Position numbers and translations under genes: made by a program. Of a stretch of DNA of 28,644 nucleotides, positions 25,960 to 26,291 are shown piece after piece (position 1 is the first letter of the stretch; each line of letters opens with the position of its first letter). The stretch comes from a virus (taxonomy: Duplodnaviria > Heunggongvirae > Uroviricota > Caudoviricetes), in IMG/VR virus record IMGVR_UViG_2711768060_000004, positions 1 to 28,644 of that record; one strand, written 5' to 3'. The notes below the pieces were generated by a model, which searched no databases, had not been told where the DNA came from, and was given only the letters and a program-made list of their open reading frames with translations.

Positions 25960-26291
25960 TAGCTAACCAACGAGGCTAAGGTTGGTAATTAAGGAGTTCT
26001 CCACGGGTCAGGTGGAGTGCGTGCGCCGGACACGGGTGAACATCCGGCACTGACAGTTTACTGAAAGGATATTTCCCTGAAAAGTCAGAGCATAACGCGA
26101 AAGCGCACGGCGAGGTAGCTGGTTCATAGATAGCCTGTCGTTAAATTTTCGTCGACCGTGCGCTTCCGGTTGTGGCACTCCGCGAAATGGCGCGGCGGTA
26201 AGTATGGCGGGGTTATTCCTTCCCCGTTGAGGACACCGGGTTGTCAGGTTGACCATACGCTTAAGTGACAACCCCGCTGCAACAACCCATG

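Follow-up and report, generated by a model that had tools for sequence, protein, structure and literature searches.

A conserved, pseudoknotted RNA core upstream of an exchangeable small RNA cassette in a Qin-type phage early region

Why should a phage early operon keep some 330 nucleotides (nt) of strongly structured, apparently non-coding RNA between two of its genes? The question is raised by the interval 25960-26291, plus strand, of a 28,644-nt viral sequence (Caudoviricetes, IMG/VR record IMGVR_UViG_2711768060_000004; this whole stretch is called the window), where a spacer separates a ydfC-like gene from the position that the small RNA (sRNA) DicF occupies in the Qin prophage of Escherichia coli K-12. 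An initial annotation made from the sequence alone had proposed an extended DicF precursor with processing sites, an extra sRNA or a cis-regulatory RNA controlling the toxic genes dicB and ydfD. Our analysis places the locus in the DicF long-precursor system. The interval is a mosaic, which that annotation missed, and its last ~115 nt alone form a widely conserved, covarying and pseudoknotted domain, here called the core. With moderate confidence, we read the interval as the 5' two-thirds of a DicF-type long-form leader RNA, in which the core would be the folded body that stabilises the RNA and gates release of the sRNA.

The plus strand of the interval contains no open reading frame (ORF) of 60 amino acids (aa) or more, the longest being 36 and 41 aa, and every inverted repeat named in the initial annotation was recovered. 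Its description as structured also held: the 332 nt of the plus strand fold at -124.6 kcal/mol (z = -3.17, 0/100 shuffles), and the minus strand of the same segment folds less well (z = -2.28). Contrary to the initial annotation, the spacer is not longer than its K-12 counterpart, since K-12 matches bases 1-324 at 96.3% identity without any indel, and the distance from the ydfC stop codon to the DicF 5' end in K-12 (340 nt; positions 2501-2840 of the K-12 locus, L001) equals that in the window. Similarity to K-12 ends at 26283, beyond which lies a different cassette. No Rfam family matched anywhere in 25960-26291, at the gathering threshold or at E <= 10, and at E <= 10 none matched over the core in the K-12, cdtI, P1 or Erwinia copies either.

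In searches of 5426 complete E. coli genomes and a phage collection, matches to the interval began at query positions 1, 21, 48, 61, 132 or 210. Only the last ~115 nt were common to all copies, the hairpins in 25960-26167 being specific to the Qin lineage, and a five-way alignment showed the block 26169-26283 to be kept in K-12 Qin, phage Tritos, the cdtI/Ayreon/Stx2c phages, P1 and P7. The core was present in 8966 copies in 4315 of the E. coli genomes (80%), compared with 6402 copies of canonical DicF in the same genome set, which identifies the core as the constant part and the sRNA as the exchangeable part. About 70 further distinct copies were obtained from pattern scans of IMG/VR and of GTDB species (one genome per species) and from BLAST searches of plasmids; they come from Citrobacter, Trabulsiella, Erwinia tracheiphila, Izhakiella, Serratia symbiotica, E. 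albertii, E. ruysiae and Shigella as well as from P7-type phage-plasmids. BLAST with the most divergent member added no clades. The core occurs in N-less lambdoid prophages of six genera, with the flanks replaced around it.

The core is found ~280 nt after pL and downstream of cI in phage cdtI, phage Ayreon and the Stx2c phages. In phages P1 and P7, the ban promoter (Pban), which C1 controls, starts ~30 nt before the core, where the P1 copy is 5'-terminal in the transcript with no need for processing. A feature called "dicF-like region" in the P1 record overlaps the 3' half of the core. Each phage has one copy, always early-left or after Pban, and a second copy on the pR side was not found. 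A core with its cassette, at 89% identity, is also present at 6070-6254 of Actinobacillus phage vB_Apl-pPE4 (PP818812.1), reported from Actinobacillus pleuropneumoniae; every other host belongs to the Enterobacterales.

The core is built from the following elements.

26169-26283, plus strand: pseudoknotted four-helix core of ~115 nt, identified by covariation.
26169-26176 / 26276-26283, plus strand: helix P1.
26180-26184 / 26191-26195, plus strand: helix P2.
26208-26212 / 26222-26226, plus strand: helix P3, a variable hairpin.
26238-26246 / 26266-26274, plus strand: helix P4.
26197-26199 and 26202-26207 / 26253-26261, plus strand: pseudoknot pairing GGU..GUAUGG with CCAUACGCU in the P4 loop.

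To this fold 58 distinct sequences could be aligned (alignment A2), with 96.1% of the cells paired. Twelve pairs change on both sides, compared with 3.8 +/- 1.3 in shuffled alignments (0/500), and pairing falls to 33-53% in controls in which the partners were slid. Compensatory changes affect six pairs of helix P4, Izhakiella having GGGUAACCA/UGGUUACCC, for instance. All 21 sequences (100%) of a diverse alignment (A4) have the pseudoknot paired, and three of its pairs vary: GUAUGG/CCAUAC in P7-type copies becomes GCAUGG/CCAUGC in P1-type copies, and there are changes from U.G to C-G and from G.U to G-C; RNAalifold picks this helix unaided. Helix P3 has been replaced wholesale in 34 variants, of which all but two are predicted to keep a hairpin. 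The P2 loop, J2/3, the ACACC junction and the 19-nt P4 loop are near-invariant. Most wobble pairs in helix P1 are U.G or G.U, and are therefore valid on the plus strand only. The initial annotation had named a frameshifted pseudogene or non-conserved helices as outcomes that would speak against a structured RNA; for 26169-26283 neither was seen, the helices being kept with compensatory changes. Two additional contacts were considered and dropped. Pairing of the P3 loop (UCCUU) with J3/4 (GAGGA) fits some variants and fails in others, and complementarity of the P4 loop to the start of ydfA has no counterpart in the P1 and cdtI contexts, from which ydfA is absent while the loop is unchanged.

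The segments flanking the core, on which the argument about processing turns, are these.

25962-25986, 25993-26045 and 26047-26091, plus strand: three local hairpins of the Qin-lineage 5' part.
26091-26175, plus strand: long imperfect hairpin of ~21 base pairs (bp), an RNase III-type substrate, with central arms 26098-26110 / 26156-26168.
26160-26172, plus strand: predicted RNase III cut and long-form 5' end, transferred from K-12 at 96% identity.
26284-26304, plus strand: variable single-stranded linker (alignment A1).
26305-26350, plus strand: hairpin GGCGGG...CCCGCC with a U5 run, an intrinsic terminator and variant sRNA cassette (z = -3.07, terminator detection).
26355-26373 with 26498-26516, plus strand: long-range 19-bp duplex in the dicB leader, an RNase III-type substrate, 95% complementary.

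The three local hairpins belong to a subregion, 25960-26092, with a fold z of -2.33. The long hairpin that follows them folds at -34.4 kcal/mol (z = -3.0; folding against shuffles and inverted-repeat search) and is retained relative to the K-12 spacer. Its base, CAUAAC / GUUGUG, makes use of the 5' strand of helix P1, and in the Qin-type arms, CAUAAC...GCGCACGG / CCGUGCGC...GUUGUG, the 5' arm imitates the 3' strand of that helix. A long duplex 5' of the core that overlaps the 5' strand of helix P1 is a feature of the lambdoid contexts in general; in Ayreon/cdtI, Erwinia, Izhakiella and locus L099, unrelated or diverged sequences make a like duplex at the same place, which in the cdtI, Erwinia and Izhakiella types has the form CACAACGAUGAGAGCA / UGCUCUCUUCGUUGUGG (z = -5.9 and -5.5).

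The proposal of an extended DicF precursor agrees with published experiments on the near-identical K-12 sequence (PMC10448788). K-12 accumulates DicF species of 190 and 53 nt, as reported by Faubladier in 1990 and confirmed by Ragunathan in 2023; RNase III makes the 5' end of the 190-nt species, which is lost without this enzyme, and inactivation of RNase E causes the 190-nt species to pile up, the 5' end of the 53-nt species requiring RNase E (PMC10448788). The long form is stable in stationary phase, and the RNase III cut was reported at "813/814" of the dicBp transcript, the sequence of which is given in Fig. S1 of that paper (PMC10448788). An Hfq-enriched interval lies upstream of dicF (PMC4152368), and reviews name the region the ydfC 3' untranslated region (PMC9438474). 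Counting 137 nt (190 - 53) in the 5' direction from the DicF 5' end (L001 2841) gives L001 2704, which at a constant offset of 23459 is window position 26163. The long form would accordingly begin within the 3' arm of the 21-bp hairpin, the GCGCACGG/CCGTGCGC repeat listed in the initial annotation, 6 nt before helix P1.

A 17-nt direct repeat, CGCGAAAGCGCACGGCG / CGCGAAATGGCGCGGCG, occurs at 26096-26112 and 26181-26197 of the window, 85 nt apart. Three natural variants (L014, L060 and L158) are deletions joining exactly these two repeats, which leaves the RNase III hairpin without its 3' arm and helix P1 without its 5' strand; in L158, a Shigella copy, the deletion is accompanied by a decayed terminator.

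Downstream of the core, the supposed DicF-like sRNA proved to be a different cassette in the DicF position. The Rfam DicF model (RF00039, gathering score 48 bits) gave no match in window 25200-26600 even at E <= 10, whereas K-12 DicF, the positive control, scored 76.7 bits. Both the 5' tail and the hairpin interior of the cassette (26292-26350) are unlike DicF, and this variant is present in no more than a few E. coli genomes and in two IMG/VR contigs (L006 and L120). From the copy numbers given above, about 29% of the E. coli cores are not followed by a canonical DicF (8966 vs 6402), which suggests that the DicF position houses a set of uncharacterised sRNAs directed at other targets. A hairpin with a U-run is located 48-95 nt after the core in 57 of the 58 distinct downstream contexts, the exception being the decayed Shigella copy L158. 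The stem base UUGGCGG/CCGCC is conserved in lambdoid contexts and the interior is free to vary, while the terminator hairpin of P1/P7 differs from the lambdoid type. A longer terminator hairpin is seen in Erwinia, Izhakiella, Serratia and Trabulsiella (L169 ~4690-4740; L173, L155, L167 and L052). It encloses the Shine-Dalgarno sequence and start codon of a short conserved ORF (MFYR... / MFCR...), the frame of which continues past the U-run and into the long duplex that comes next; it may encode a leader peptide.

The K-12 RNase E site corresponds to 26299/26300 in the window, where the linker sequence differs, so that the site cannot be carried over. In the fold predicted for the K-12 long form, core and DicF hairpin stand apart as two modules and the DicF 5' seed pairs with the linker: at L001 2826-2853, linker UGUUAUCA pairs with seed UGGUGACG, with the RNase E site in the loop. 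If this pairing forms, the long form would mask the DicF 5' seed. A variant cassette (L024 and L126) keeps the linker-seed hairpin with changed bases. A potential antiterminator pairing between the 5' strand of helix P3 (GGCGGGG) and the 3' strand of the terminator (CCCCGCC) was rejected as a conserved feature, being lost when P3 or the cassette changes. The pairing does occur in the minimum free energy fold of the K-12 long form, a fold equal in energy to the modular one as long as the pseudoknot is left out of the count.

Beyond the cassette, the cdtI/Ayreon type has a duplex analogous to the one in the dicB leader but of other sequence, ACAAAACAGAGAAG.../...CUUCUCUGUUUUGU, which ends just before the first gene. 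In K-12, it is at this downstream duplex that RNase III makes the 3' end of a 72-nt DicF (PMC5069750). Together with the upstream duplex, it follows that in lambdoid contexts an RNase III-type duplex lies on either side of the core and its cassette. In the cdtI-type downstream duplex, the 3' arm, GGUGCUCUUCUCUGUUGUGU, has a boxA-like GCUCUU core (L260 6244-6263; L169 ~4830-4850). Matches to Rfam STnc100 below the gathering threshold (33-34 bits, threshold 47) were recorded at window 26343-26566, L001 2891-3100 and L004 4342-4461; what they span is the dicB leader, 19-bp duplex included, and, in P1, a segment upstream of tciA.

The reading that we favour orders these elements in time. Transcription from the repressor-controlled promoter at 25325-25352 would pass through ydfABC into the spacer, where the long hairpin 26091-26175 would form and be cut by RNase III at about 26163. 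The cut would free the strand GUUGUGGC, which could then close helix P1 with GCUGCAAC and so complete the compact four-helix pseudoknotted domain 26169-26283. The core would now sit at the 5' end of an RNA of ~190 nt whose 3' end is the hairpin-terminator cassette 26305-26350, that end being produced by termination or, in read-through transcripts, by an RNase III cut of the next duplex. Later cleavage of the unstructured linker by RNase E would release a short Hfq-type sRNA. In such a scheme, the core would be a maturation and stability module: base-paired and compact, it would bury the 5'-monophosphate end, so that the long form persists as a stable reservoir, and it would determine the time and place at which RNase E releases the sRNA attached to it. 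The two processing steps themselves, by RNase III to 190 nt and by RNase E to 53 nt, are established for the 96% identical K-12 RNA, while closure of helix P1 after cleavage and the stabilising and gating roles are what we infer. The scheme is argued for by an architecture that is kept, with duplexes on both sides, while the sequence differs among the Qin, cdtI/Ayreon and Erwinia/Izhakiella types. The placement of the spacer, between ydfC and the DicF-position terminator and 3' of a DicA-type promoter, is also that of a DicF long-form precursor.

Several points weigh against this account. A four-way junction, a 9-bp pseudoknot and near-invariant loops exceed the need, as a simple hairpin would protect a 5' end. 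The core alone (26165-26292) has an unremarkable fold z of -0.99, so that the evidence for it is covariation, without thermodynamic support, and its closing helix P1 has no convincing alignment in P1/P7-type copies. The downstream "sRNA" of phage P1 is little more than ~25 nt plus a terminator, and all processing data come from K-12, which has another cassette than the window. Such elaborate and invariant loops point to a specific recognition partner, and three other explanations therefore have to be weighed. One of them, which we consider possible but unlikely, is that the core controls transcription in cis, the nascent RNA acting on RNA polymerase or gating the adjacent terminator and thus choosing between sRNA release and read-through into a long, partly toxic early operon (dicB/ydfD; recombination genes; tRNAs, tciABC and ban in P1). 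The core would then, tentatively, stand for a so far unrecognised kind of leader RNA in phages, a modifier of RNA polymerase or termination that works without a protein and is put-like in function and structurally unrelated to put. It is a similarly doubtful proposition that such a modifier carries early-left transcription in N-less lambdoid phages and ban transcription in P1 past the terminator, with unmodified polymerases terminating and delivering the sRNA. What speaks for cis control is location: in three unrelated operon types, the core always lies 5' of an intrinsic terminator with a long operon behind it; in lambdoid phages without an N gene at the canonical place it takes the nutL/putL position, and the stretch of P1 from Pban to ban has a single consensus terminator, directly after the core. 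Long untranslated leaders (ydfC to dicB, ~575 nt; Pban to ban, ~2.6 kb) point the same way, as does the extreme conservation of the loops, a trait of put RNAs too. The neighbouring phage genes vary between contexts, so that any partner must be host-encoded. Against these observations stand the absence of any match of the core model in HK022 and of any significant match in 80 put-bearing loci, the single copy per phage with none on the pR side, and our failure to find a covarying antiterminator pairing with the terminator. Moreover, the conserved RNase III duplexes that bracket the unit suggest that the RNA product matters, beyond the nascent chain, and in K-12 a terminated transcript of 1,146 nt is visible, whereas read-through to 1,608 nt was seen only with RNase E inactive (PMC10448788).

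A second alternative makes the core a self-contained functional domain within a stable non-coding RNA, one that would bind, sponge or decoy a host protein or RNA, the cassette being mainly an Hfq-binding and terminator module. Excision by flanking RNase III duplexes, the invariant loops and junctions, the cloverleaf-like four-helix junction with its loop-to-junction pseudoknot, the freely varying P3, the stability of the long form in stationary phase (PMC10448788), the Hfq-enriched stretch found upstream of dicF (PMC4152368) and the wider distribution of the core than of DicF are all in line with this. We nevertheless judge it quite unlikely, as the partner is hypothetical and the core resembles no known protein-binding RNA family in Rfam at E <= 10; the published Northern probes were directed against DicF only. 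A riboswitch-like aptamer that senses a metabolite or ion and controls the adjacent terminator is less probable still. The fold is aptamer-like and covarying, with a four-way junction and pseudoknot in which 12-13 pairs change on both sides, a closing helix P1, conserved junction nucleotides, one free peripheral hairpin and a terminator within 48-95 nt. Both strands of helix P1 also have nearby competitors, namely the upstream mimic of its 3' strand and, in some variants, a downstream UGUUG or GUUGUG. Yet the 5' strand of the terminator is 20-45 nt away from helix P1, no conserved, mutually exclusive antiterminator helix was found, the competing pairings (including the isoenergetic fold of the K-12 core with the 3' half of DicF) are not kept across cassette types, and no known riboswitch class matches in Rfam at E <= 10. 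Finally, it is very improbable that the region is a decayed protein-coding gene or that its structure is a functionless by-product of composition, as might be suspected from the low fold score of the core, from an 87-aa ORF on the minus strand (26008-26271) and from the hypothetical proteins that several phage records annotate over the core. The ORF has no Pfam match, and homologues carry indels of 1 to 6 nt in helix P3, within it, which excludes a conserved reading frame. The helices have compensatory substitutions with G.U pairs that are valid on the plus strand only, and the core is kept across six genera and P1/P7 while its flanks are replaced. The opposite-strand ORFs over the core comprise orf40 of cdtI, SJJBTUD_0036 of Ayreon and the 87-aa ORF of the window (coordinates: window 26008-26271, L002 2545-3000 and L260 6045-6239, all on the minus strand). 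Given the indels and the RNA-type covariation, they are probably annotation artefacts.

We also compared the locus with known RNA systems. The closest relative is the long DicF of the K-12 Qin dicBF operon, which shares the locus architecture and 96% of the sequence over 25960-26283, including the RNase III hairpin and the core, and differs in the sRNA cassette after the core, the one in the window not being an Rfam DicF. The put RNAs of phage HK022, putL and putR, are processive antiterminators that need no protein and act in cis through the zinc-binding domain of the RNA polymerase beta' subunit. They resemble the core as structured, highly conserved leader RNAs of a repressor-controlled early operon in an N-less lambdoid phage with terminators downstream. 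They differ in having ~74 nt, two stems, a triplex and a conserved GUCGGG...GGAUGA motif, with one copy after pL and one after pR, compared with the ~115 nt, four helices, pseudoknot and single copy of the core. A put pattern retrieved 85 loci, among which the put RNAs are nearly invariant. The comparison was made in one direction, with the core model (R1) run against put loci; the put-bearing loci were retrieved around the put matches, so that the put sites were part of the scored sequence. In the HK022 locus (L003), R1 gave nothing with E <= 1, and in 80 put-bearing loci it had three weak matches only (E 1.1-4.6, 9.6-11.4 bits), the position of which relative to put was left unchecked. Co-occurrence of the core with put was not found in those loci. 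Short put look-alikes in the core (CGAA.GGCGCG; GGGUU..CAGG.UGA) were noted by eye only and not counted as evidence. Judged by these model searches, the core is not a member of the put family.

In the leader of the lambda N gene, nutL is followed by an RNase III-sensitive hairpin upstream of N. The core loci share with it the order of an early-left promoter, an RNA signal and a long RNase III-type duplex before the ribosome-binding site of the first gene, and differ from it in the terminator/sRNA cassette that separates core and duplex. No boxA- or boxB-like sequence was noticed on reading the core, for which no pattern search was made, and no N gene is at the canonical place in the phages examined, as judged from position and annotation only, N proteins being diverse. 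The first genes after the element are dicB or those for a 126-aa protein and DUF2303, which does not correspond to a nut site. The immunity RNAs P4 CI, P1-P7 C4 and N15 CA (Rfam C4, RF01695), small RNAs cut from the leader of the very operon that they control, are comparable as leader-encoded, structured RNAs of temperate phages that are excised by host RNases beside an early-operon terminator. The Rfam C4 model did not match the element in any of the loci scanned (window, K-12, cdtI, P1 and Erwinia), and complementary target repeats were not found. Phage cdtI has a true C4 elsewhere (68.4 bits), together with isrK (60 bits), at L002 40-228 on the minus strand, by the antirepressor gene on the pR side.

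Among Hfq-dependent sRNAs, CpxQ, SroC and SdhX have a 3' end formed by an intrinsic terminator in or at the end of an mRNA and a 5' end made by RNase E (PMC9438474). The DicF-type cassette has the same layout, with a terminator at the 3' end and RNase E at the 5' end. We know of no sRNA of this type with a conserved, pseudoknotted upstream domain that travels with exchangeable cassettes. The ops element recognised by RfaH has the consensus GGCGGTAGnnTG on the non-template strand, with G5, T6 and a C3:G8 pair. At 26194-26202 the window has GGCGGTAAG (A at position 8), which resembles ops GGCGGTAG... on the non-template strand. P7-type copies have GGCGGCAAG, with T6 lost; identity with ops was rejected, and the likeness is probably a coincidence of constraints at the RNA level. 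A tRNA-like element or RNase P substrate, suggested by the rough cloverleaf order of the helices, was likewise rejected: no tRNA family matches in the region, CCA is not conserved in the 3' flank, and it is RNase III on which formation of the 5' end depends (PMC10448788). By the tests that were run, the locus is thus not a put, nut, C4 or ops element.

The conserved fold, the pseudoknot, a function of the 137-nt 5' part and the spread outside Qin are not described in the searchable literature, outside which lie Faubladier 1990 and 1994 and the P1 genome paper. With the same scope, and with the 2011 put-like RNA and 1994 dicF-homologue papers also outside it, there appears to be no earlier description of the core as a covarying, pseudoknotted family, which has no Rfam entry, of its occurrence in P1/P7 and, across several genera, in N-less lambdoid prophages, or of the exchangeable non-DicF cassettes. 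Work on DicF goes back to 1989; most E. coli carry it, enterohaemorrhagic strains often more than once, and its 190-nt long form has so far been regarded as no more than a precursor. The "spacer" now becomes a defined, testable RNA module, with a covariance model that can be used for annotation, as phage records place spurious hypothetical proteins over the core. Further sRNAs in the DicF position, whose targets would differ, are predicted, and the module is a candidate for how N-less lambdoid phages and P1 handle a terminator at the start of an early operon. Should the core only stabilise the precursor, it would be a tidy addition to sRNA biogenesis; should it act on RNA polymerase or a host protein, it would be a new class of regulatory RNA.

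The setting of the spacer is a Qin-type immunity and early-left region at 24385-26922, in which the following features surround it.

First feature of the region 24385-26922, minus strand: dicC-like gene.
24719-25228: dicA-like repressor gene, preceding the terminator below.
25248-25262: terminator 3' of the dicA-like gene.
25325-25352, plus strand: dicBp-like promoter, TTGACA-16 nt-TATCAT (11/12 consensus match in a consensus scan; layout as in K-12).
Between the promoter and ydfC, plus strand: ydfA (Pfam DUF1391) and ydfB.
25741-25959, plus strand: ydfC-like ORF of 72 aa, collinear with K-12 ydfC, its stop codon forming the 5' border of the spacer.
26534-26722, plus strand: dicB (Pfam DicB, E = 2.9e-36), the first gene 3' of the cassette terminator.

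A ydfD-like ORF follows dicB. The gene order from the dicC-like gene to dicB is collinear with that of the K-12 derivative at a constant coordinate offset, and from this layout the promoter is predicted to read into ydfABC, the spacer, the sRNA cassette and dicB. Elsewhere in the window, the sok antitoxin RNA of a hok/sok module is encoded at 20006-20178 on the minus strand (93.7 bits), and two adjacent tRNA genes are located at 14998-15148, also on the minus strand.

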